A stretch of DNA of 64,000 bases from a phage. A model generated the notes under the pieces. That model did no database searches. It was not told where the DNA came from and saw nothing but the letters and a program-made list of their open reading frames with translations. The translations under genes were made by a program, and so were the position numbers. The DNA is taken from the sequence record PZ386974.1. One strand, written 5' to 3'. Positions 3,850 through 61,000 of the stretch are shown piece by piece; position 1 is the first letter of the stretch; the number at the start of each line of letters is the position of its first letter.

Positions 3850-3862
3850 TAAGACGCCTGAT

Positions 3863-3880
3863 GGGCTATTTCGGTAGCCC
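3863..3880 (+). terminator. intergenic hairpin GGGCTA-tttcgg-TAGCCC after gene 18
   Basis: 6-bp GC-rich stem directly after gene 18 stop; followed by late promoter. Confidence 0.4.
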
Positions 3881-3881
3881 A

Positions 3882-3889
3882 TATAAATA
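3882..3889 (+). promoter_or_regulatory. T4-type late promoter TATAAATA for gene 19
   Basis: exact TATAAATA in 18-19 intergenic region. Confidence 0.6.
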
Positions 3890-8274: not shown

Positions 8275-9843
8275 ATGACTACTATCAAAACTAAAGCTCA
8301 GCTCGTAGACAAATGGAAAGAACTGCTGGAAGGTGAAGGCCTGCCGGAAATCGCTAATAGCAAGCAGGCTATTATCGCTAAAATCTTCGAAAACCAGGAA
8401 AAAGATTTCGAAGTATCCCCTGAATATAAAGACGAGAAAATCGCTCAGGCATTTGGTTCTTTCTTGACCGAAGCTGAAATTGGTGGTGACCATGGTTATA
8501 ATGCTCAGAACATCGCAGCAGGTCAAACCTCTGGTGCAGTAACACAAATTGGGCCGGCAGTTATGGGTATGGTTCGTCGTGCTATTCCTAATCTGATCGC
8601 TTTTGATATTTGTGGTGTTCAGCCTATGAACAGCCCGACCGGTCAGGTATTTGCTCTCCGTGCAGTATATGGTAAAGACCCTATCGCTGCTGGCGCTAAA
8701 GAAGCTTTCCATCCGATGTATGCCCCAGACGCGATGTTCTCTGGTCAGGGTGCTGCTAAGAAATTCCCAGCTCTGGCTGCTGACACTACTACTGTTGTAG
8801 GTGATATCTATACTCACTTCTTCCAAGAAACTGGTACCGTATATCTGCAAGCTTCTGCTATCGTAACACTTGATTCTAGTGCAACTGATGCAGCTAAATT
8901 AGATGCAGAAGTTAAGAAACAAATGGAAGCTGGTGCACTGGTAGAAATCGCTGAAGGTATGGCTACTTCTATCGCTGAACTTCAGGAAGGTTTCAACGGT
9001 TCTACCGATAACCCATGGAATGAAATGGGCTTCCGTATCGATAAACAAGTTATCGAAGCTAAATCTCGTCAGCTGAAAGCTGCTTACTCTATCGAATTAG
9101 CACAAGACCTCCGTGCAGTACACGGTATGGATGCTGATGCTGAACTGAGCGGTATTCTGGCTACAGAAATTATGCTAGAAATCAACCGTGAAGTTGTTGA
9201 TTGGATTAACTACTCTGCACAGGTTGGTAAATCTGGTATGACCCTGACTCCGGGTTCTAAAGCTGGCGTATTTGACTTCCAGGACCCGATTGATATCCGT
9301 GGTGCTCGTTGGGCCGGTGAAAGCTTTAAATCTCTGTTGTTCCAGATTGATAAAGAAGCAGTTGAAATTGCTCGTCAAACCGGTCGTGGTGAAGGTAACT
9401 TCATTATCGCTTCCCGTAACGTAGTTAACGTACTGGCTTCAGTTGATACTGGTATTTCTTACGCTGCGCAGGGTCTGGCTTCTGGTTTTAATACCGACAC
9501 TACTAAGTCTGTATTTGCCGGTGTACTTGGTGGTAAATACCGCGTATACATCGACCAGTATGCTAAACAGGATTACTTCACCGTTGGTTACAAAGGCGCT
9601 AACGAAATGGATGCAGGTATTTACTATGCTCCTTACGTTGCACTTACCCCGCTGCGTGGTTCCGATCCTAAGAACTTCCAGCCGGTAATGGGCTTTAAAA
9701 CTCGTTACGGTATCGGTGTTAACCCGTTTGCTGAAAGTTCCCTGCAGGCTCCAGGTGCTCGCATCCAGTCCGGTATGCCGTCTATCCTGAACAGCCTTGG
9801 TAAGAACGCTTACTTCCGCCGTGTATATGTAAAAGGCATCTAA
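8275..9843 (+). CDS. 23: major capsid protein gp23
   Basis: 522-aa ORF; strong T4-like codon bias; matches T4 gp23 length and sequence by recall. Confidence 0.96.
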   Translation: MTTIKTKAQLVDKWKELLEGEGLPEIANSKQAIIAKIFENQEKDFEVSPEYKDEKIAQAFGSFLTEAEIGGDHGYNAQNIAAGQTSGAVTQIGPAVMGMVRRAIPNLIAFDICGVQPMNSPTGQVFALRAVYGKDPIAAGAKEAFHPMYAPDAMFSGQGAAKKFPALAADTTTVVGDIYTHFFQETGTVYLQASAIVTLDSSATDAAKLDAEVKKQMEAGALVEIAEGMATSIAELQEGFNGSTDNPWNEMGFRIDKQVIEAKSRQLKAAYSIELAQDLRAVHGMDADAELSGILATEIMLEINREVVDWINYSAQVGKSGMTLTPGSKAGVFDFQDPIDIRGARWAGESFKSLLFQIDKEAVEIARQTGRGEGNFIIASRNVVNVLASVDTGISYAAQGLASGFNTDTTKSVFAGVLGGKYRVYIDQYAKQDYFTVGYKGANEMDAGIYYAPYVALTPLRGSDPKNFQPVMGFKTRYGIGVNPFAESSLQAPGARIQSGMPSILNSLGKNAYFRRVYVKGI

Positions 9844-9867
9844 TCTTAATTGATTAAATCTTATTTT

Positions 9868-9892
9868 GGGAGACTTCGGTCTCCCATTTTTG
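9868..9892. terminator. rho-independent terminator GGGAGAC-ttcg-GTCTCCC + T-run after gene 23
   Basis: 7-bp GC stem with UUCG tetraloop followed by ATTTTTGG; same 25-mer recurs at 57319 and (reverse strand) 48993. Confidence 0.65.
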
Positions 9893-11550: not shown

Positions 11551-11562
11551 ACAAAAAAAAAA

Positions 11563-11585
11563 GGGACCTTACGGTCCCTTTTTCG
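11563..11585. terminator. bidirectional terminator GGGACC-ttac-GGTCCC flanked by A-run and T-run
   Basis: between convergent genes 24 (+) and rnlB (-). Confidence 0.65.
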
Positions 11586-13152: not shown

Positions 13153-13227
13153 TCCCGTATTATTTGGTTTGTGCCATTATATACATCAATCTCAAGATGT
13201 GTTTTGTATGCTTTAAAAACGAAGAAA

Positions 13228-13241
13228 GGGGCCGAAGCCCC
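13228..13241 (-). terminator. terminator hairpin GGGGC-ttcg-GCCCC + T-run after hoc
   Basis: minus-strand stem-loop then TTTCTTCGTTTTT directly after hoc stop. Confidence 0.55.
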
Positions 13242-13245
13242 TTGA

Positions 13246-14664
13246 TTATGGATATGTATAGATGATACCAGTTTCCAAAGCAGTTTTATGGATGATGTAT
13301 CCATTACGTGATTCTTGAACATCAACTTCTGGATAGTCTTTCATCATCTTCTGAAGCGTATAACGATGCAAGTAATACTTACTATCTGGATCTTCAGTTT
13401 TCCAATCTTTACCTTCTTCAGTCATTTTTTGGATTTCATCCATAACCCACCAACCGCACCAGATGTAAGCTGAAGTACGATGTGGAAGAGGATGAACATA
13501 AGGTAATTCACCTTCTGGTTCTGGAGCAACTTTATCGGTTACCTGAACTTGACCTTCTGCTGTAATAGTTTTGCTATCATAATCAGTAGCAGTAACAGAT
13601 GCAGTAACTTCAATAGTTTGACTTCCAATAGATGAGGTATCAACGGTATATACATTAGTTGACCCTTCTACAGGAGAAGAATCTTTCTTCCATGAATACT
13701 CAATTTGCGCTTCTTCTGGAGCATCAGTGACATTAGCGGTAAATGTAGCCGAAGCATCTTGCTGAACGTTAATAGAAGGAGGAGTCAATGTAACCCGTGG
13801 ATTCATTGTCTTCTTATTAACCGTTAATGATACTTCATTCGAAGTAACTTCCTTTGCATCATAATCTGTCGCGGTTACTTGGGCTACACATTTAATTCTT
13901 TTTACTCCACTTGTAGTCGGAGTATAGCTAAATGTAGAGTTAGTTTCTCCACCAACCTGTGAATCATCTACATACCACTGATACGTAGCAGACGCTCCAA
14001 CCGGTTGAGAAGCTAAGGCAGCAGTAAATTGAACTGGGGTTCCAATTACTCCGGCTGAAGGACTATTGGGAGTTACTGCCAACGTAGTTGTCTGTGTCTT
14101 TTTATTAACAGTCAGTGACACTTCATTAGAAGTAACTTCCTTTGCATCATAATCTGTTGCGGTTACTTGAGCCACACACTTAATTCTTTTTACCCCGCTT
14201 TCGGCAGGAGTGTAATTGAACGTAACGTTAGTTGCTTCGCCAACAGGAGAATCGTCTACATACCATTGATAAGTAGCGTTTGCGCCTGATGGCTGCGAAG
14301 CTAAAGCGGCGGTAAATTCAATAGCTGTTCCTATTACTCCAGCGTCAGGGCTATTGGGAGTTACTGCTAAGGTAGTCGTTTGTGTCTTGTTTTGAACTGT
14401 GATAGTTGTAGAAGCTTCTGCTGTTTCAGCTTCAGCTTCTGGAACTGTATTTGTTGCAACTACTTTAATAGTCTTTTGACCGGCAGGTCCTTTTAGTACA
14501 TAACTAAAAGTTGCTTCAGCTCCATCTTGTGGAACATCATCCACAGACCAAGCATATGTAATAGTTCCGCCCCCAGTTTCACCACTGGGTGTAGCATTAA
14601 ACTGCTTAGTCTCATCTATAACTCCAGTAGGTGTTTTAGGAGTTATATCAACTGTAAAAGCCAT
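13246..14664 (-). CDS. hoc: highly immunogenic outer capsid protein Hoc, with extra Ig-like domain
   Basis: 472-aa ORF; N- and C-termini match T4 Hoc (376 aa); contains two tandem ~96-aa Ig-like repeats where T4 has one. Confidence 0.9.
   Translation of the reverse strand: MAFTVDITPKTPTGVIDETKQFNATPSGETGGGTITYAWSVDDVPQDGAEATFSYVLKGPAGQKTIKVVATNTVPEAEAETAEASTTITVQNKTQTTTLAVTPNSPDAGVIGTAIEFTAALASQPSGANATYQWYVDDSPVGEATNVTFNYTPAESGVKRIKCVAQVTATDYDAKEVTSNEVSLTVNKKTQTTTLAVTPNSPSAGVIGTPVQFTAALASQPVGASATYQWYVDDSQVGGETNSTFSYTPTTSGVKRIKCVAQVTATDYDAKEVTSNEVSLTVNKKTMNPRVTLTPPSINVQQDASATFTANVTDAPEEAQIEYSWKKDSSPVEGSTNVYTVDTSSIGSQTIEVTASVTATDYDSKTITAEGQVQVTDKVAPEPEGELPYVHPLPHRTSAYIWCGWWVMDEIQKMTEEGKDWKTEDPDSKYYLHRYTLQKMMKDYPEVDVQESRNGYIIHKTALETGIIYTYP
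13813..14388 (-). repeat. tandem duplication of 288-bp Ig-like domain unit inside hoc
   Basis: two adjacent 96-codon units (14101-14388 and 13813-14100), clearly similar at nt level (identity not computed), encoding KTQTTTLAVTPNSP...SLTVNK. Confidence 0.8.
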
Positions 14665-16128: not shown

Positions 16129-17643
16129 ATGACAGATATTAAAGTACATTTTCATGATTTTAGCCATGTAAGAATTGAATGCGACGAAAGCGTGTTCTAT
16201 GAATTACGCGACTTTTTTAGCTTTGAAGCCGATGGGTACAAATTCAACCCGCGTTACAAATATGGGAACTGGGATGGTAGAATTCGACTTTTAGATTACA
16301 ATCGTTTGTTACCATATGGACTTGTAGGACAAATAAAAAAGTTCTGTAACAATATGAGTTATTCTGTATGGATTGACCCTAAAATCTTTGAGACTGAAGA
16401 CCTTACCAGGGAAGATTTTGACGCATGGCTTTCTAAACAAGAAATTTATTCTGGCAACGCCAAAATTGAACCACATTGGTATCAAAAAGATGCAGTATAT
16501 GAAGGACTAGTTAATCGTCGTCGAATTTTAAACCTTCCGACATCAGCAGGTAAATCACTAATCCAAGCACTTTTAGCTCGGTATTATCTAGAGAACTATG
16601 AAGGTAAAATTCTCATTATCGTCCCTACAACGGCATTGACAACTCAGATGGCTAATGATTTTGTTGATTATCGCTTGTTTAGTCATTCGATGATTAAGAA
16701 AATTGGCGGTGGTGCTGATAAAGCGGACAAATCTAAAAACGACGCTCCAATTATTGTTGGCACATGGCAAACGGTAGTTAAGCAGCCTAAAGAATGGTTC
16801 TCTCAGTTCGGTATGATGATGAACGACGAATGCCACTTAGCAACAGGCAAAAGTATTTCTTCAATCATCTCAGGATTAAATAATTGCATGTTTAAATTCG
16901 GTTTATCCGGCTCATTAAGAGACGGAAAAGCCAATGTAATGCAGTATGTAGGCATGTTCGGCGAAATCTTCCGTCCTGTTAGCACGTCTAAATTAATGGA
17001 AGATGGACAGGTAACTGAGCTTAAGATTAATAGTATTTTCCTTCGTTATCCGGACGAATTCACCGTTAAATTAAAAGGTAAAACATACCAAGAAGAAGTT
17101 AAAATTATTACCGGACTAAAACGTCGTACAAAGTGGATTGCTCAACTTTCGGTCAAATTGGCTAAGAAAGACGAGAACGCCTTTGTAATGTTTAAACACG
17201 TTACACACGGTAAAGAAATATTTGAAGCTATTAAAGAGCTTGGATACGAAAAAGTTTATTACGTATCAGGTGAAGTTGATACTGAAACACGTAACGCGCT
17301 TAAAGTCATGGCAGAAAATGGTAAAGGCATTATTATTGTCGCATCATATGGAGTATTCTCTACTGGTATTTCAGTCAAGAATCTTCATCATGTTATTTTC
17401 GCCCATGGTGTTAAATCAAAAATTATCGTACTTCAAACAGTAGGTCGTGTGCTTCGTAAGCATGGTTCTAAAGCTGTTGCTACAGTTTGGGATCTCATCG
17501 ATGACGCAGGTGTAAAACCTAAATCATTAAATACTAAAAAGAAGTATACTCATCTTAATTACTTGTTAAAACACGGTATTGATCGTATCCAGCGTTACGC
17601 TGATGAGAAATTTAACTATGTAATGAAAACAATTAATTTATAA
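16129..17643 (+). CDS. uvsW: UvsW DNA/RNA-DNA helicase
   Basis: 504-aa ORF; SF2 helicase motifs (PTSAGKS Walker A, DECH box). Confidence 0.93.
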   Translation: MTDIKVHFHDFSHVRIECDESVFYELRDFFSFEADGYKFNPRYKYGNWDGRIRLLDYNRLLPYGLVGQIKKFCNNMSYSVWIDPKIFETEDLTREDFDAWLSKQEIYSGNAKIEPHWYQKDAVYEGLVNRRRILNLPTSAGKSLIQALLARYYLENYEGKILIIVPTTALTTQMANDFVDYRLFSHSMIKKIGGGADKADKSKNDAPIIVGTWQTVVKQPKEWFSQFGMMMNDECHLATGKSISSIISGLNNCMFKFGLSGSLRDGKANVMQYVGMFGEIFRPVSTSKLMEDGQVTELKINSIFLRYPDEFTVKLKGKTYQEEVKIITGLKRRTKWIAQLSVKLAKKDENAFVMFKHVTHGKEIFEAIKELGYEKVYYVSGEVDTETRNALKVMAENGKGIIIVASYGVFSTGISVKNLHHVIFAHGVKSKIIVLQTVGRVLRKHGSKAVATVWDLIDDAGVKPKSLNTKKKYTHLNYLLKHGIDRIQRYADEKFNYVMKTINL

Positions 17644-17668
17644 GGGCTTCGGCCCTTAGGAGATAAAA

Positions 17669-28672: not shown

Positions 28673-28712
28673 AGAGTTTTCCTTTTAGTAATAATTTATA
28701 TTTATGCCAAAA

Positions 28713-28728
28713 AGAGCCCGAAGGCTCT
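28713..28728 (-). terminator. hairpin AGAGCC-ttcg-GGCTCT + T-run upstream of alt
   Basis: minus-strand stem-loop followed by TTTTTGG between upstream ORF and alt. Confidence 0.5.
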
Positions 28729-28916
28729 TAATCCACAATCGGGAGCAAAGTACGATAAACTTCAAAATTAGGGCCTTTTTCGTACGTATCAAAATTGTCC
28801 ATAAAAATATTATAGGAATCGTTATTAGGAAAATCTAATATAATCTGAGAGCAAGAGGTGGAAACATCTCCACCATCCTTCTTAGCTACAATAACTGTTT
28901 CTAAATAAGCTTTCAT
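28728..28916 (-). CDS. hypothetical protein
   Basis: 62-aa ORF starting at ATG overlapping ligase stop (TAATG). Confidence 0.5.
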   Translation of the reverse strand: MKAYLETVIVAKKDGGDVSTSCSQIILDFPNNDSYNIFMDNFDTYEKGPNFEVYRTLLPIVD

Positions 28917-33022: not shown

Positions 33023-33034
33023 AATTTCCTCAAT

Positions 33035-33050
33035 GGGAGCCGAAGCTCCC
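33035..33050 (-). other. intergenic RNA hairpin GGGAGC-ttcg-GCTCCC
   Basis: identical 16-mer hairpin also at 33974-33989. Confidence 0.45.
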
Positions 33051-33057
33051 AGTTAAA

Positions 33058-33937: not shown

Positions 33938-33973
33938 ATCTTTTTAAACTTTTTCTGCCCTAAACGCACAAAA

Positions 33974-33989
33974 GGGAGCCGAAGCTCCC
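33974..33989 (-). terminator. terminator hairpin GGGAGC-ttcg-GCTCCC + TTTTGTG
   Basis: directly after stop of the 59-aa ORF on minus strand. Confidence 0.55.
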
Positions 33990-33994
33990 TAAAA

Positions 33995-42235: not shown

Positions 42236-42645
42236 TACTTTTTCTTATGTTGGATATTCCAAGGCGGGTTGAACTTTTTGATAAAAAGTGGTTCTTCAAG
42301 GTCCATTGTTGCGATGGTCATTGAACCAAGTTCGTTGGTGACTGAAAGGTCAAAACATTGGCGGGCCCAGAATTCAACCTTTTTGCCTTGCATTAAGGCA
42401 TCCAAAATCATAAGTGATTTTCTTGAATCTGAAGTCTGGTCTTTTCGATTTATGGCTGTTCGATAATAGTTAATGCGTTTCTTTAAATTCTTGGTTTTAC
42501 CAATATACACAAGTTCGTCATCTATAGCAATAGCGTATATGACATTTTTCTTATTAGGGACATCAACTGTTTTAATTGTTGCATCTTCTAATAGCTCCAA
42601 TTCTGTATATTTAATAAAGGAATATTCGGCGGCAATATCTTTCAT
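42235..42645 (-). CDS. denA: endonuclease II (GIY-YIG family)
   Basis: 136 aa, same as T4 EndoII; VYIGKT motif. Confidence 0.9.
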   Translation of the reverse strand: MKDIAAEYSFIKYTELELLEDATIKTVDVPNKKNVIYAIAIDDELVYIGKTKNLKKRINYYRTAINRKDQTSDSRKSLMILDALMQGKKVEFWARQCFDLSVTNELGSMTIATMDLEEPLFIKKFNPPWNIQHKKK

Positions 42646-42671
42646 AATAAAGTGGGACCGAAGTCCCGTCC

Positions 42672-43859
42672 TTAGAAATATTTTTTGTATGAATTGATTA
42701 CATTTTGGTCTACATCATTATCAATTTGTGCGACAAGATAAGAACTGATTTCAACTTCCTGAGGAGCTGCTTGAACTAAATCAGAGTTCAGATATTCACG
42801 AATCCAAGGATACGGATGCTTTGTCGGAGCATCAGTGATTGGGCATGGCAAACCACACTGTTTCATACGAGACACAGTCAAGTAATCAACAAAAGCACAC
42901 ATACTCTGTGTATTGATGCCTGGGCATGTACCGTCTTTAAAGAGGTGTGCAGCCCATTCCTTCTCTTGACTATTTACTTCCATAAAAATGTCAACTGCTT
43001 CTTGTTCACATTCTTTAGCAATTTGAACCCACTCATCACCGTCAGTACCAGATTGAAGTTGACGGATAATGTACTGAGTACCCTTGAGATGGAGTTGTTC
43101 GTCACGAGCAATGAACTTCATAATCTTTGCATTACCTTCCATAATTTCCATATTTTTATGGAAGTTGAAAGTACATGCAAATGATACGTAAAAACGAATA
43201 GCTTCTAAGGCGTTGATAACATGCAAACAGAGATAAAGAGACTTCATTAAATCACGCTTGGCGTTAAACATTATTTCTTCGTACATCTCAATATCATTCT
43301 GCTGGCATGAGCCTATTGAATACTCATAATTTTCCTTAGCATTTTCCCAATGACGAGTCTTGACTAGAACATCATCGTAATATTTACCTATTGATTCAGC
43401 TCGTTTCATGATTGCTTCGTCTAATACAATCTCATCAAATACCTTAGATGGGTCTGTATAAAGATTTCGCATAATATGAGTATACGAACGAGAGTGAATA
43501 GTTTCACTGAAAGTCCATGTTGCAACCCATGTATCTAATGAAGGGTCAGAAATCAGTGCCATAAGTACCGCAGATGGGGCCCTGCCTTGGATAGAATCTA
43601 ATAATGATTGATACTTAAGATTGTTTGTAAAGATGTCCTGTTGGAACTGAGGAAGCTTATTGAACTGCGCAGAGTCCAACATCAAGTTTACCTCTTCGGG
43701 GCGCCAGAAAAATGACAATTGCTTTTCGGTCAAATCTTCAAAAACTTTATGGCGTTGAATATCATAACGCGCAATACCAAGACCAGAACCAAAGAACATC
43801 GGTTCATTCAAAACATCGACTTGTTGTGTGTTAAAAACTGTACTCATTATATTTCTCAC
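42672..43859 (-). CDS. nrdB: ribonucleotide reductase small subunit NrdB (intron-less)
   Basis: 395-aa uninterrupted ORF with diiron ligand motifs. Confidence 0.93.
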   Translation of the reverse strand: MRNIMSTVFNTQQVDVLNEPMFFGSGLGIARYDIQRHKVFEDLTEKQLSFFWRPEEVNLMLDSAQFNKLPQFQQDIFTNNLKYQSLLDSIQGRAPSAVLMALISDPSLDTWVATWTFSETIHSRSYTHIMRNLYTDPSKVFDEIVLDEAIMKRAESIGKYYDDVLVKTRHWENAKENYEYSIGSCQQNDIEMYEEIMFNAKRDLMKSLYLCLHVINALEAIRFYVSFACTFNFHKNMEIMEGNAKIMKFIARDEQLHLKGTQYIIRQLQSGTDGDEWVQIAKECEQEAVDIFMEVNSQEKEWAAHLFKDGTCPGINTQSMCAFVDYLTVSRMKQCGLPCPITDAPTKHPYPWIREYLNSDLVQAAPQEVEISSYLVAQIDNDVDQNVINSYKKYF

Positions 43860-48961: not shown

Positions 48962-48992
48962 AACTTTTTCGGTAATTTATAGATACTCAAAA

Positions 48993-49010
48993 GGGAGACC
49001 GAAGTCTCCC
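48993..49010 (-). terminator. terminator GGGAGAC-ttcg-GTCTCCC + TTTTGAG after gene 32
   Basis: same hairpin as after genes 23 and 35, here on the minus strand. Confidence 0.6.
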
Positions 49011-49016
49011 GATTTA

Positions 49017-49919
49017 TTATAGACCAGCTAACAGGTCATCGAGGTCGCCATCATCAGAGGATGAGGTAGAGCTCATGAAGTCATCTTCAGTTTTTGCAGA
49101 ACTAAAGGCTTCCATGTCTTTATCAAAATCGTCAAGGTCAGAAGCAACTTTATCTGCAACAGAAGCTGCGGCAGCTGCTGCACCACCAAGAGCGGCAGTA
49201 CCAAGAACCTTAGCGAAAGATTCATTTAATTTTTCAAATGATTTGAACTGGTCTTTAGCCGTCAAAGTAGTAAGGTCTACCATCTGGTCATATAGTTCTT
49301 TCTGGAATGCTTCGTCATTAATACGAGGAATTTCAGACTGACCCAAGAATTTAGATTCGTCATAGTTGCTAAAACCGGAAACCTGCTTAGCTTTCAGAAC
49401 GAAGTTAGCACCTTCAAACGGACAAGTAACATCAACTGGAGTTTCACCCATTTCGGTATCAACTGCAATCATTGCATTGATTTTGTCCCAAATCTTTTTA
49501 CCGAAACGATATTTAAATACTTTACCTTCGTTATCTGGAGCTTGAGGATCTTTAACAACCAGAATATTAGCCCAATAAGAAGTTTTACGTTTCAGTTGAG
49601 AATATTCAGCTTTGTTGGTATTGTACAGGTCATTTTTACTAATGTACTGACATACAGGACAAGAGTCATAATCACCATGTGTAGAAGAGCAATTTTCAAT
49701 ATACCATTTACCATTTTTCTTGAAACCATGGTTAACAAGAATTGCAAATGGTAGTGCATCATCAGTTTTTGCTGGCAAGAAACGAATTACCGCTTGACCA
49801 TTACCGGATGCATCTAGCTTCAGCTTCCATTCGCCTTTATCTTCTGAAGAGAAACCTTTGTTACCATTCAGTTTAGCCATTTGAGCAGCGAGGTCAGCAG
49901 TAGATTTACGTTTAAACAT
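49017..49919 (-). CDS. 32: single-stranded DNA-binding protein gp32
   Basis: 300 aa; MFKRKSTA..., zinc-binding H/C cluster, acidic C-terminus. Confidence 0.95.
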
Positions 49920-56185: not shown

Positions 56186-57313
56186 ATGGAAAAATTTATG
56201 GCTAAGTTTGGACAAGGATACGTCCAAACGCCATTTTTATCGGAAAGCAATTCGGTACGATTTAAATTAAGCATAGCGGGCTCTTGTCCGCTATCAACAT
56301 CTCCTGCCTATATTAAGTTCCAAGATAATCCACTTGGGTCCCAGGTTTTTTCTGTTGGATTAAACGTTCGTGTAATAAATCCTACAACAGGTGCAGTAGT
56401 TGAATCTAAGTCATATAATTTCTCTACTGAAAACGACGCCACGTCAAGTGCATTTGTTACTTTCATGGACACATATGCTTCAAATTTTATATTTGCTCTT
56501 GTTACTAACGCTAAAACAAACTTTCCACCCGAAGTTCTTACATGGTTTAATAAAGCCGGAAGTTCTGCTATTCCATTAGCTCAACAAGTTTTAAATATAG
56601 TGGACATTTCTTATTCTGCGTTTTATATTTCTGGTAAGAATGCTATAGCACTAGAACATATTAAGTATAGTAATAAGAAAACTTCAACCGACTATAGTAC
56701 ACCACTTGATGTTGTGTACGACACGATCGATGATATTGGTGCTACCGGCTTCCCTAGACGTACGTACGAATCGACAGACACATTTTTATCTGCTGTTGGA
56801 GGTGCTAATAATGAAATTAAAAGGATGCCTACAACGTCCGTTATTACACCTCTCACTGGGTATAAATTGAAGCCTGGAGATTTCCTTTATATGAAATTCC
56901 AACTAATGGCCGATGCCGATTTGTTAGCACAAGGGACGACACGACTTTCTATTCGTTTCTTTAAATCTCCTTCTACTTCACCTATTTCATTTAAGGATAT
57001 AAACTTTGATGGGGCTGCAGGTGAATGGAAGATATATGAAGACTACATAGAAATTCCTGCTGGTGCTGACGGGTTCACGATTTATTGTTATCGTACAGCT
57101 CCAGTCGGGCAAGGTGGATTAAGAAACGTTATATTCACTGAAGTATCATGTAATGGAAGCGTTTCAAAACCTGCCGAGTTTGGTATAAATGGTATTCGTG
57201 TAAATTATGTTTCAGAATCTTTAAGTGCCCCAGACATAATGACATTACCTACTCAATCTTCAACCGATACTGGTAAGGTATTTGGTCAAGAATTTAAAGA
57301 AGCATCAGAATAA
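56186..57313 (+). CDS. 35: long tail fibre hinge protein gp35
   Basis: 375 aa, T4 synteny. Confidence 0.9.
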   Translation: MEKFMAKFGQGYVQTPFLSESNSVRFKLSIAGSCPLSTSPAYIKFQDNPLGSQVFSVGLNVRVINPTTGAVVESKSYNFSTENDATSSAFVTFMDTYASNFIFALVTNAKTNFPPEVLTWFNKAGSSAIPLAQQVLNIVDISYSAFYISGKNAIALEHIKYSNKKTSTDYSTPLDVVYDTIDDIGATGFPRRTYESTDTFLSAVGGANNEIKRMPTTSVITPLTGYKLKPGDFLYMKFQLMADADLLAQGTTRLSIRFFKSPSTSPISFKDINFDGAAGEWKIYEDYIEIPAGADGFTIYCYRTAPVGQGGLRNVIFTEVSCNGSVSKPAEFGINGIRVNYVSESLSAPDIMTLPTQSSTDTGKVFGQEFKEASE

Positions 57314-57318
57314 ATTTA

Positions 57319-57343
57319 GGGAGACTTCGGTCTCCCATTTTTG
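57319..57343 (+). terminator. terminator GGGAGAC-ttcg-GTCTCCC + T-run after gene 35
   Basis: identical 25-mer to 9868-9892. Confidence 0.6.
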
Positions 57344-57351
57344 TATAAATA
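57344..57351 (+). promoter_or_regulatory. T4-type late promoter TATAAATA for gene 36
   Basis: exact motif immediately after the terminator. Confidence 0.6.
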
Positions 57352-57375
57352 TGGTATACATATAAGGAGACAACT

Positions 57376-58041
57376 ATGGCCGATTTAAAAGCTGGTAGTA
57401 CAACTGGCGGTGCTGTCATATGGCATCAAGGTAATTTCCCTTTAATGCCAGCAGGTGATGACGTCCTGTATAAAACGTTTAAACTCTATTCAGAATATAA
57501 TAAACCACAAGCTGCTGATAACGATTTCGTTTCTAAAGCTAATGGTGGTACGTATGCCGCTCGAGTAACATTTAATAATGGTGTGCAAGTACCTTATGCC
57601 GTAAATAACACAAATCAAAGTGGTATTTATCCTGGCAATGGCGATGCTGCTACTTTTGATACAGCAAATATTGATATTGTTTCATGGTATGGCATTGGTT
57701 TTAAATCATCACAAGGATCTGCAGGTAGAACTGTTGTTGTTAACACTCGTACTGGTGATATCAGCACTAAAGGTGGTATTTATGCAACTGGTCCTGTCCG
57801 TTCTAATGCTACTGCTCCGGTTGCAGCAAATGATCTCACAAGAAAAGATTATGTTGATGGACGAATAAATATTGTTACGGATAACGCAAATTCCCGTGTA
57901 TTGCGTAAAGGCGATACCATGACTGGTACTTTAACAGCACCAAACTTTTTCTCACAGAATCCGGCGTCTGAGGCTAATCATGTTCCTCGTTTCGACCAGA
58001 TTGTAATTAAAGATTCTGTTCAAGATTTCGGCTATTATTAA
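57376..58041 (+). CDS. 36: long tail fibre distal connector gp36
   Basis: 221 aa, same length as T4 gp36. Confidence 0.9.
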
Positions 58042-58049
58042 GAGGACTT

Positions 58050-61000
58050 ATGGCTACATTAAAACAGATACAATTTAAAAGAAGCAAAGTAGCAGGAGTT
58101 AATCCTACTGCAGCACAATTAGCCGAAGGCGAATTAGCGATAAACTTAAAAGATCGAACTCTTTTTACTAAAGATGACCTCGGTAATATTATTAGCCTAG
58201 GCTTTGCTAAGGGTGGGGATATTAACGGTAATGTAACTCAAAATGGTGATTATTTACAAAACGGCACATTTAACCTCAATGGAAATCAGTTTGTTTATGC
58301 AGGAAAATACATTGAATTTTTACCTAAAACCACTGGAAATGGCGCTTGGGCTAACCAACATTCGAATAAAGCCCCTATCTTTACAGATTTGAGTTCAACT
58401 ACTTCTATTTCAGAATACCACCCTTTGATTAAACAACGCTATAAAGATGGAACTTTTTCTGCTGGTACATTAGTAAACGAAGGTAGTTTTAAATTCCATT
58501 ATATTGATGAAACCGGGACTTCAAAATACTGGACTTTTAATCGAAACGGTAATTTTCAAGTTGATTCTGGAAGTTTATTAGTATCTAATGGATATTTAGT
58601 TACTCAAAGTAATATTGAAACTAAAGCTGGTTCTTTAATTGGTCCTAAAGTTATTACCAAAAATATCAATGTGAGCACTAAATCTTGGGGCACTAATATT
58701 GATACTGCATATGATTTAGTTTCATTACCGACTTGGCACTATACTCCAACCGAAACAGATTTGGATACTAATGGTATAAACTACCTTCGTAAATTCCGCG
58801 GACATGTTTCTTCTGCTATTTTCCATGAAGTTGCTGATGCTCGTTCAGGTAAACCACAGAATATTTCGTATTGGACGGGACGTAATGCTGAAGTTTATCA
58901 ATGGTCTTATACCACAGATGGGCGTATGTCTGTTGCTAATTCGATAGGTATAGGTCTTGCTGATGTTGGTGACCAAGGACGTTATCCATTGGTTTCGTTT
59001 GGTAAAGGTATTGCAATTGGTGACAATGATACTGGTATTAAATGGGTTCGTGACGGGGTTATCGATTTAGTTGCGAATGGTATTTCTGCCGGCACTATTC
59101 TTAATAACGGCATTAACAGTACTAAAAAATTGATGGTTGGTTATAGTCGAGATTCTGGTTCTACTTGGGATTACCCAAATAACAACCAAGCAATGTTTAC
59201 TGCGCGTACCGATGTTGATGGTAATAATAACGGTGACGGTCAGACTCATATTGGTTATAGCAGCAATGCCAAGATGTATCACTATTTCCGTGGCACTGGT
59301 CGTATGTCCGTTAGTATGGGCGATGGACTTCTTGTTGAGCCTGGCATTTTAGATATTAAAACTGGTTCAAATTCGTTAAATTTGCGTGCTGATGGTACCA
59401 TCGCTTCCGTTCAAACGTTAAAACTTAATAATGGATTATATTTTAATGGCGATGGAACTAATGCTTCTCTAGTTTTTAAAGCAGCTTCAGGTATTGATGG
59501 CACTAAGCAAATCATGTGGGAAGGCGGTACTCGAGCAGGTCAGAATAAGAGTTATGTAACGGCTAAAGCATGGGGTAATTCATTTAATGCCACTGGTGAT
59601 AAATCTCGTGAAACTGTATTTGAAGTTAGTGACGGGCATGGATACCATTTTTATTCTCAACGTGTAGCTCCTGCGCCTGGTTCTACCGTCGGACCTATTC
59701 AATTTCGAGTTAATGGTGGTTTATTAACTTCAGGTAGTATTGTTACTTCTGGTTCTATTACAACTGAATCTTCTTTAAGTGTTAATAATGGCATGTCAGT
59801 AAATGGACAAGCTAAATTCGGTGGAACTGCTGATGCATTAAGAATTTGGAATGCTGAATACGGTGCTATTTTCCGTCGTTCAGAGGCGGCATTGCATATT
59901 ATTCCAACTCCTAAAGATGCAGGTGAATCTGGCGGAATAAGTAATCTTCGCCCATTAAGTATCAGCCTTAATAATGGTATGGTGCAAATGCGTCATTCTG
60001 TCACGTTAGGTGACGATGGTGCTGGCGGTAATATGATTACAGTGGACAATGATAACAAACTTGTTGTTGTTACTAGTAATAGTCGCATTTCTCCTAATTT
60101 CAGAATGCAGATAGGTCAGTCGGCATACATTGATGCAGAATGTACTGATAGAGCACGTCCGGCCGGAGCGGGTTCTTTTGCTTCCCAAAATAATGAAAAT
60201 GTACGTGCGCCGTTCTATATGAATATTGATAGAACTGATACTAGTACATATGTTCCTATTTTGAAACAACGATATGTTCAAGGAAATAGCTGTTATTCTT
60301 TAGGAACTCTAATTAATGGTGGTAACTTTAGAGTTCATTATCATGAAGGTGGTGATAATGATTCGACGGGCCCTTTAATTAAGGACTTCGGGTGGGAATT
60401 CAATAGAACCGGTGATTTTATTTCCCCTGGTAAATTAGGCGCTGGTACGGTTCGTATTGGTACTGACGGTAACATCACAGGTGGTTCTGGTAATTTTGCC
60501 AACTTAAATAGTACAATTGAATCACTTAAAACTGATATTGTCTCAAGTTATCCAATTGGTGCTCCGATTCCATGGCCTACTGATACACCTCCTGAAGGTT
60601 ATGCCATAATGGAAGGTCAAACATTTGATGCTGGCTTGTATCCTAAGTTAGCTGCGGTGTATCCTTCCGGCTCTCTGCCTGATATGCGTGGTCAAACTAT
60701 CAAGGGTAAACCATCTGGGCGTGCTGTATTGAGTACAGAAGCAGACGGTGTTAAGTCACATAGCCATAGTGCAAGTGCATCAAGCACAGATTTGGGTACT
60801 AAGACCACTTCTAGTTTTGATTACGGTAGCAAAACGACTTCAAGCTTTGATTATGGTACTAAGACCAGTAATACCACTGGCAACCATAACCATACAGTGA
60901 GTGGTAATACTAGTTCCGCAGGAGCTCACCACCACGCGCGTTCAGGTCCTCAGGTACAAGGCGGCATACCCACTAGCGTATTCTATGATGGATACAATAG

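Follow-up and report, generated by a model that had tools for sequence, protein, structure and literature searches.

Why does a phage genome carry one and the same hairpin sequence behind three separate genes? We addressed this question in a window of 64,000 nucleotides, the whole stretch of DNA analysed (sequence record PZ386974.1). The 18-mer GGGAGACTTCGGTCTCCC is found in the window exactly three times: at 9868-9885 and 57319-57336 on the plus strand, and at 48993-49010 on the minus strand. There was no fourth copy in the window at up to two mismatches, and no copy in 100 dinucleotide-preserving shuffles. The original prediction had placed the repeat after genes 23, 32 and 35, and had proposed a search of both strands in this and related phages. 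Positions, strands and gene names agreed with our exact matches and with annotated relatives, and the search returned four copies in the relative AV110. A 25-nt identical module had also been described. This is correct for the two plus strand copies, after genes 23 and 35, which have GGGAGACTTCGGTCTCCCATTTTTG in common, including the sequence ATTTTTG. The minus strand copy, after gene 32, shares the 18-mer only and continues with TTTTGAG. Identity among the window's own copies ends at 18-25 nt.

Around the first site, a 2-kb piece of the window shares 99.8% identity with Escherichia phage AV110 and ~99% with other Mosigvirus genomes. By its sequence, the window is an RB69-like T4-type phage (Mosigvirus). 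Annotated relatives identify the genes as those for gp23, the major capsid protein (8275-9843, plus strand), gp32, the ssDNA-binding protein (49017-49919, minus strand), and gp35, the tail-fibre hinge (56186-57313, plus strand); gp36 lies at 57376-58041 on the plus strand. All three genes had been called highly expressed. This was an overstatement, since gp35 in T4 is a low-copy tail-fibre hinge protein and is not highly expressed. Hence, strong expression is no explanation for why these sites carry the hairpin.

The three copies are positioned 5-24 nt past the stop codon and on the same strand as the gene. Their stems are 7-8 bp long with five G-C pairs, the 4-nt UUCG loop is closed by a C-G pair, and a U-run is present on the 3' side only. 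Predicted RNA folds of the three sites range from -13 to -16 kcal/mol, and each site was the top-ranked terminator-like site of its region in a consensus scan. After gene 23, the putative terminator (9867-9892, plus strand) has the 8 bp stem UGGGAGAC-UUCG-GUCUCCCA, then UUUUUG, with further U-rich sequence to about 9905. It has a predicted fold of -16.1 kcal/mol (z -4.2) and is the top terminator-like match; the gene downstream is convergent. We considered a bidirectional terminator here and rejected it, because the antisense RNA has a CGAA loop and then an A-rich stretch, with no U-run. After gene 32, the putative terminator (48986-49010, minus strand) reads GGGAGAC-UUCG-GUCUCCC, then UUUUGAG. 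This hairpin is the first block of a terminator, early promoter, SD and ATG cassette that reaches 48903 and aligns end to end, block by block, with the 30.9 intergenic region. After gene 35, the putative terminator (57319-57343, plus strand) has the same stem and loop, then AUUUUUG. It is directly followed by the T4-type late-promoter motif TATAAATA (57344-57351, plus strand), 25 nt before the gene 36 start codon. There are 20 matches to this motif in the window, compared with 7.1 expected, and its place after the gene 35 hairpin is also kept in T4, RB69 and PhAPEC2.

All three sites thus have the makings of a Rho-independent terminator: a G+C stem, a short loop, a U-run and a location at the sense strand end of a gene. 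The U-runs are short and interrupted, with 4-5 U (4 U after gene 32). Hence, the efficiency of termination could be low. A scan of the whole window against Rfam, at gathering thresholds, gave no match.

The three hairpins belong to a larger set. Counting stems of at least 5 bp with at least three G-C pairs and a C-UUCG-G loop, we found nine hairpins in the window, compared with 0.07 in shuffles. Every one of them is intergenic or overlaps with a stop codon, and in every case the sense strand of the neighbouring genes carries UUCG and not CGAA. This asymmetry indicates a function in RNA and not in DNA. With the exception of the reverse complement of C-UUCG-G, no other tetraloop motif occurred more than three times in the window. 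Chance was ruled out as the origin of the repeats by the shuffle counts, be it for the 18-mer, for the second hairpin discussed below or for the whole set. Five copies of two hairpin types had been predicted. These are real, but they form a single class and are part of the nine. In AV110, a near-identical phage, there are 26 cUNCGg hairpins genome-wide, including the four copies of the 18-mer.

Four members of the set had not been listed. The hairpin after hoc (13226-13243, minus strand), AAGGGGC-UUCG-GCCCCUU with a U-rich tail, is identical in T4. The hoc ORF itself (13246-14664, minus strand) encodes 472 aa in the window, moskry and RB69 and 376 aa in AV110 and PhAPEC2. Given that the moskry record annotates internal repeats in hoc, these lengths suggest that close relatives carry different numbers of domain repeats. 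After alt.1 (28712-28729, minus strand) the hairpin is AAGAGCC-UUCG-GGCUCUU, then UUUGG; a different stem occupies the orthologous site of T4. The uvsW stop codon overlaps with the hairpin UAAGGGC-UUCG-GCCCUUA (17641-17658, plus strand), which has no U-run; GGAG and the uvsW.1 ATG come directly after it. The uvsW hairpin region (17641-17668, plus strand) is identical in five Mosigvirus genomes. Finally, GGGAC-UUCG-GUCCC (42654-42667, minus strand) lies between the nrdB stop and AAGGA on one side and the denA ATG on the other, and is followed by ACUUUAUU and not by a U-run. Folding of this nrdB/denA hairpin (42645-42674, minus strand) would set the SD-like AAGGA at a normal distance from the start codon and so would make a split ribosome-binding site. 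It is annotated as a terminator in PhAPEC2. Absence of a U-run sets aside the hairpins at 17641-17658 and 33034-33051, and the one at 42654-42667 was also not classed as a terminator. A hairpin alone is therefore no proof of termination, since hairpins of the same class occur in the window without a U-run.

Two further structures were observed. After gp18 (3861-3889, plus strand) a 9-bp hairpin, AUGGGCUAU-UUCG-GUAGCCCAU, has a U-G closing pair; it abuts the late-promoter motif TATAAATA (3882-3889) and has no U-run. Between gp24 and rnlB (11557-11584) lies a putative bidirectional terminator, AAAAAGGGACC-loop-GGTCCCTTTTTT. On the minus strand its loop is GTAA in the window, moskry and RB69 and TTAC in AV110 and PhAPEC2, even though these phages are ~99% identical. 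Inversion of the loop thus shows a GNRA loop to one or the other convergent transcript.

The second hairpin, GGGAGCCGAAGCTCCC, was found where it had been predicted, at 33035-33050 and 33974-33989. Its recurrence is real, whereas its description as a hairpin with a cgaa loop came from the non-coding strand. Genes at 33-34 kb are on the minus strand, and the RNA there reads GGGAGC-UUCG-GCUCCC. Hence, it belongs to the same UUCG class as the first hairpin. The two copies have different surroundings. After the 30.9 homologue, a putative terminator (33961-33990, minus strand) reads AGGGAGC-UUCG-GCUCCCU, then UUUGUGCGUUU; the hairpin proper (33973-33990) is followed by the U-run UUUUGUGCGUUU and by a GTTTAC-N17-TACTAT early-type promoter. 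After the 30.7 homologue, the intercistronic hairpin UGGGAGC-UUCG-GCUCCCA (33034-33051, minus strand) has no U-run and leads directly into UUGAGGAAAUUAUG, the SD and start of the next gene. Because it lacks a U-run and runs into a ribosome-binding site and start codon, this copy is not a terminator.

At the 30.9 site, AV110, moskry, PhAPEC2 and RB69 carry the 18-mer hairpin GGGAGAC-UUCG-GUCUCCC, and the window alone carries GGGAGC-UUCG-GCUCCC. The window's hairpin is shorter by one pair, having lost an A from the 5' arm and the paired T from the 3' arm. The flanks are identical between the window and its relatives for more than 100 nt upstream. Both the window's form and that of the relatives are identical to another hairpin of their own genome. 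Thus, the recurrence of the second hairpin looks to be the product of a recent, window-specific change, which made the 30.9 hairpin match one 940 nt away. A short conversion, quasi-palindrome correction, two selected mutations or an assembly error could each account for this change. A sequencing artefact at 33973-33990 is possible because a few single-base homopolymer differences occur nearby.

We next turn to other T4-like phages. Loci for gp32 and gp23 from IMG/VR were compared, together with regions of T4, RB69, PhAPEC2, moskry and AV110. A hairpin with a T-run occupies the orthologous gp23, gp32 and gp35 sites in nearly all of the T4-like genomes sampled; at the gp23 site, most of the 57 T4-like loci listed have an orthologous hairpin. 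The stems at orthologous sites number more than 10. Depending on the lineage, these are GGGAGAC, GGAGCC, GGGAGCC, GGGACC, GGGAACC, GGACTC, GGCTACTC, GGGAGAGC and others. The loops are mostly UUCG, and sometimes UACG or UCCG (UNCG) or GCAA or GAAA (GNRA). In T4, the site after gene 23 has AGGGAACC-UUCG-GGUUCCCU, that after gene 32 has GGGGACC-CUAGA-GGUCCCC, with the loop CUAGA, and that after gene 35 has GGGACC-CUUCG-GGUUCC, with a CUUCG pentaloop, then TATAAATA. Position is kept while the stem sequence turns over with pairing maintained, and this points to selection on RNA structure. The argument rests on a hairpin being kept in place while its stem takes many forms; orthologues were extracted as the best perfect hairpin per region, so that a formal covariation count on such a set would be circular. 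In the GenBank record of PhAPEC2, 'putative terminators' called by ARNold are annotated after gp23, gp32, gp35, hoc, alt.1, 30.9 and nrdB.

Sequences beyond the stem also recur. Terminator hairpins at two or three non-homologous sites share the tail motif TTGTTGTTTCT(GGA), including hairpins with different stems. It was seen in the IMG/VR lineage of contig 650627040 (loci L005-L008, L216, L219 and L261) and in Citrobacter phages Moon and CF1 (loci L009, L012, L013, L211, L212 and L251). Related tails, TTCTTGTTTCT and TTAGTTGTTTTT, follow the gp23 hairpin in many genera. These recurrent tails suggest a constraint on the distal U-rich tract.

The gp35 site has a history of its own. In RB69 and PhAPEC2 the hairpin there is AAGGAGAC-UUCG-GUCUCCUU. 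The form seen in the window arrived as part of a tail-fibre module whose identity to that of RB69 is only 55-88% on both sides. The gp35-gp36-gp37 region (56186-58600) as a whole is 55-88% identical to RB69 and PhAPEC2, and the head genes are ~99% identical, a pattern indicating that the tail-fibre module of the window was swapped. We considered whether the gp35 hairpin is the recombination junction of this module. This was rejected, as divergence from RB69 spans both gp35 and gp36, on either side of the hairpin.

How unusual is the 18-mer itself? It was found exactly in at least 120 viral stretches of IMG/VR, in contigs of 30-63% G+C with unrelated flanks. Among the 122 viral sites listed, 107 have at least 5 T within the next 8 nt and 120 lie behind a sense ORF. 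It is also present in at least 120 bacterial stretches from many phyla, in a scan of one genome per species; T-runs follow at 103 of the 126 bacterial sites listed. An arm-swapped control, GTCTCCC-TTCG-GGGAGAC, was found in five stretches of the viral collection, a difference of at least 24-fold, and a reversed stem with a G-C closing pair had no match in that collection. Hence, GGGAGAC-UUCG-GUCUCCC is apparently a privileged terminator hairpin that has evolved many times. We infer that the polarity of the arms matters because a pyrimidine-rich 3' arm leading into the U-run would leave a weak RNA:DNA hybrid in the polymerase. Since unrelated viruses and bacteria so often carry the 18-mer, an exact match between copies does little to support copying. 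More generally, exact repeats of short stable hairpins are not proof of common descent; this one appears to have arisen independently in hundreds of viral and bacterial genomes.

Taken together, we assign a probability of roughly 0.85 to the following reading: the three 18-mers are Rho-independent terminators that also cap the mRNA 3' end, and are built on the extra-stable c(UUCG)g hairpin of T4-type phages. Once E. coli RNA polymerase has moved beyond the stop codon in gene 23, 32 or 35, the emerging transcript would fold into a G+C-rich stem of 7-8 bp, with folding nucleated by the UUCG loop and its C-G closing pair. The U-run (AUUUUUG or UUUUGAG) would leave a weak rU:dA hybrid, the transcript would be released, and the released RNA would end in a hairpin able to resist 3'-to-5' exonucleases. 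The short U-runs, of 4-5 U, suggest that termination would be partial. New promoters probably lie just downstream: a late one, TATAAATA, before gene 36 and one of early type after gene 32. The second hairpin, with its stem of 6 bp, would be a further instance of this device; one of its copies would serve as a terminator and the one lacking a U-run as an intercistronic structural element. Identity of the stems would come mainly from the privileged status of the repeatedly evolved GGGAGAC-UUCG-GUCUCCC, with its purine-rich 5' arm and its pyrimidine-rich 3' arm running into the U-run, and limited homogenisation within the genome may contribute. Both termination and stabilisation of the transcript are what we infer from anatomy and conservation; our literature search found no usable genome-wide 3'-end mapping (Term-seq) of T4. 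The original prediction had offered a terminator or RNA stability element, or copying by recombination, as the meaning of exact reuse. The former fits all of the evidence that sequence can provide, and ARNold terminators are annotated at the same sites in PhAPEC2. The case for copying is weakened by the viral and bacterial occurrences of the 18-mer (at least 120 stretches in each).

Copying nevertheless deserves consideration as the cause of identity between the stems. Terminators could exchange short patches by ectopic gene conversion or template switching, as PeSL cassettes recombine, and we regard this as possible but doubtful. Stem-loop and promoter cassettes of the PeSL type are documented recombination substrates in T4-like phages (PMC2839356, PMC4122927). 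Across the gp23, gp32 and gp35 sites of 14 lineages, the loop-proximal 5 bp matched within a genome 13 times, compared with 4.9 expected (P ~0.001), although these lineages are not phylogenetically independent. Similarly, taking two regions of 20 kb from each lineage and all of their cUNCGg hairpins, 12.2% of within-genome pairs matched and 6.5% of pairs between lineages (P = 0.006, permutation test). All three sites hold the 18-mer in Serratia phage CHI14 and GGACC in phage VR25, and in Citrobacter phages CF1 and Moon a 34-nt module recurs after gp23 and gp32. On the gp23 tree, the states 'GGGAGAC x3' and 'GGACC' alternate between sister lineages. The paired A/T change between the window and four relatives at the 30.9 hairpin, within identical flanks, is also as copying would predict; however, quasi-palindrome correction in one hairpin could produce a paired indel with no need for a second copy. 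Furthermore, the window's copies are identical over 18-25 nt and no further, a length that corresponds to the functional unit, and the gp35 allele of the window arrived together with an entire tail-fibre module of divergent sequence. Only a few stems predominate, and the 18-mer is at home in hundreds of unrelated viral and bacterial contexts, so that chance matches are common. Because the lineages are non-independent and few stems dominate, the signal of homogenisation within genomes is only suggestive. A broader form of the idea is that T4-like terminator hairpins evolve in concert, template switching or ectopic conversion of short patches keeping terminators tens of kilobases apart identical and allowing a lineage to replace its stem at several sites at once. 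We put this forward tentatively, and do not expect it to prove correct. If it did, GGGAGAC in Mosigvirus and CHI14, GGACC in VR25 and GGAGCC with a 16-nt tail in Moon and CF1 would be examples, and the paired A/T change in the window's 30.9 hairpin would show this process under way.

Two other explanations appeal to the sequence or the DNA rather than to the folded RNA. The shared stem might be recognised or processed by a factor of the phage or the host, such as an RNase or RNA-binding protein that reads GGAG or GGGAGAC, in which case the sequence would be conserved as well as the fold. T4 RegB cleaves GGAG, a RegB homologue is annotated in AV110, and many T4-like terminator stems start with GGGAG or GGAG. 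The core GGAGAC-UUCG-GUCUCC is also kept at the gp35 site in modules only 55-88% identical. However, other lineages keep a hairpin at the orthologous sites with unrelated stems (GGGACC, GGGAACC, GGACTC, GGCTACTC), bacteria of many phyla carry the 18-mer and lack T4 factors, and GGAG is buried in a very stable helix. In addition, the account of the motif given in PMC4371310 states that no protein binds the UUCG loop. A recognition site is therefore improbable. Still more remote is a role for the inverted repeat as DNA, whether as a cruciform, a recombination hotspot or a replication or packaging signal. Signs of template switching exist, namely the paired indel at the 30.9 site and the loop inversion, GTAA for TTAC, at the gp24/rnlB terminator. 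Set against these, the hairpins have UUCG on the transcribed sense strand in nine cases of nine, the T-run is on the 3' side only, and positions are tied to stop codons.

Of these readings, a terminator that also stabilises the RNA has the strongest support. For annotation of the genome, the three sites and the six further hairpins of the window mark transcript ends or intercistronic structures. Should the hint of homogenisation hold, the PeSL idea would extend from cassettes of early genes to the terminators of conserved late regions, a modest refinement of how T4-like genomes evolve. The class of element has been known since 1988 and is already annotated in a relative; the hint that stems evolve in concert is only mildly new.

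The known systems are close at hand. According to the summary of Tuerk et al. 1988 (PNAS 85:1364) in PMC4371310, it was in T4 mRNA that UUCG hairpins first came to light, and their stability is extraordinary. The high thermal stability of the class is taken from that source, and stability of the window's own hairpins is a nearest-neighbour prediction. A statement in PMC8948821, citing the same work, describes (X)nCUUCGG(Y)n hairpins as abundant in T4 phage intergenic regions and tied to several processes. The window's hairpins resemble these C(UUCG)G hairpins of T4 in the UUCG loop, the C-G closing pair, the G+C stem, the intergenic location and the mRNA sense. Some of the T4 hairpins are at terminators and others lie between cistrons, as in the window. 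All five hairpins with which this study began have the loop and closing pair of the class, and over-representation and intergenic placement are likewise as in T4. Terminators of T4 comprise a GC-rich stem, a 4-nt loop and poly(U) (PMC2988022), and strong termination is favoured by a 7-bp stem with a tetraloop, while 3' hairpins protect mRNA (PMC9257418). Like Rho-independent terminators of E. coli and T4, those of the window have a GC stem, a 4-nt loop and a U-run just past the stop codon (PMC2988022, PMC2988021). They differ in their short U-runs of 4-5 U, and termination in the window is predicted from sequence.

In T4-like phages, PeSL (promoter-early stem-loop) cassettes have been shown both to terminate transcription and to act as substrates for recombination (Arbiol et al. 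2010, PMC2839356; Comeau et al. 2014, PMC4122927). Their full architecture is found at the gp32 and 30.9 sites: a stem-loop, a GTTTAC-N17-TA(G/C)TAT early-type (sigma-70-like) promoter, an SD and an ATG. Outside the hairpin, the likeness between gp32 and 30.9 is limited to the promoter and SD consensus blocks, and changes between close relatives at the hairpins compared are internal to the hairpin. The gp23 and gp35 copies are not PeSLs; they are in late-gene regions, have no early promoter, and have a convergent gene or a late promoter next to them. T4 itself has C(UUCG)G hairpins at the orthologous sites after gene 23, hoc, alt.1 and 30.9. However, unlike T4, which has GGGAACC after gene 23 and other loops at 32 and 35, the window has one and the same stem at three sites, a number that rises to four in its relatives.
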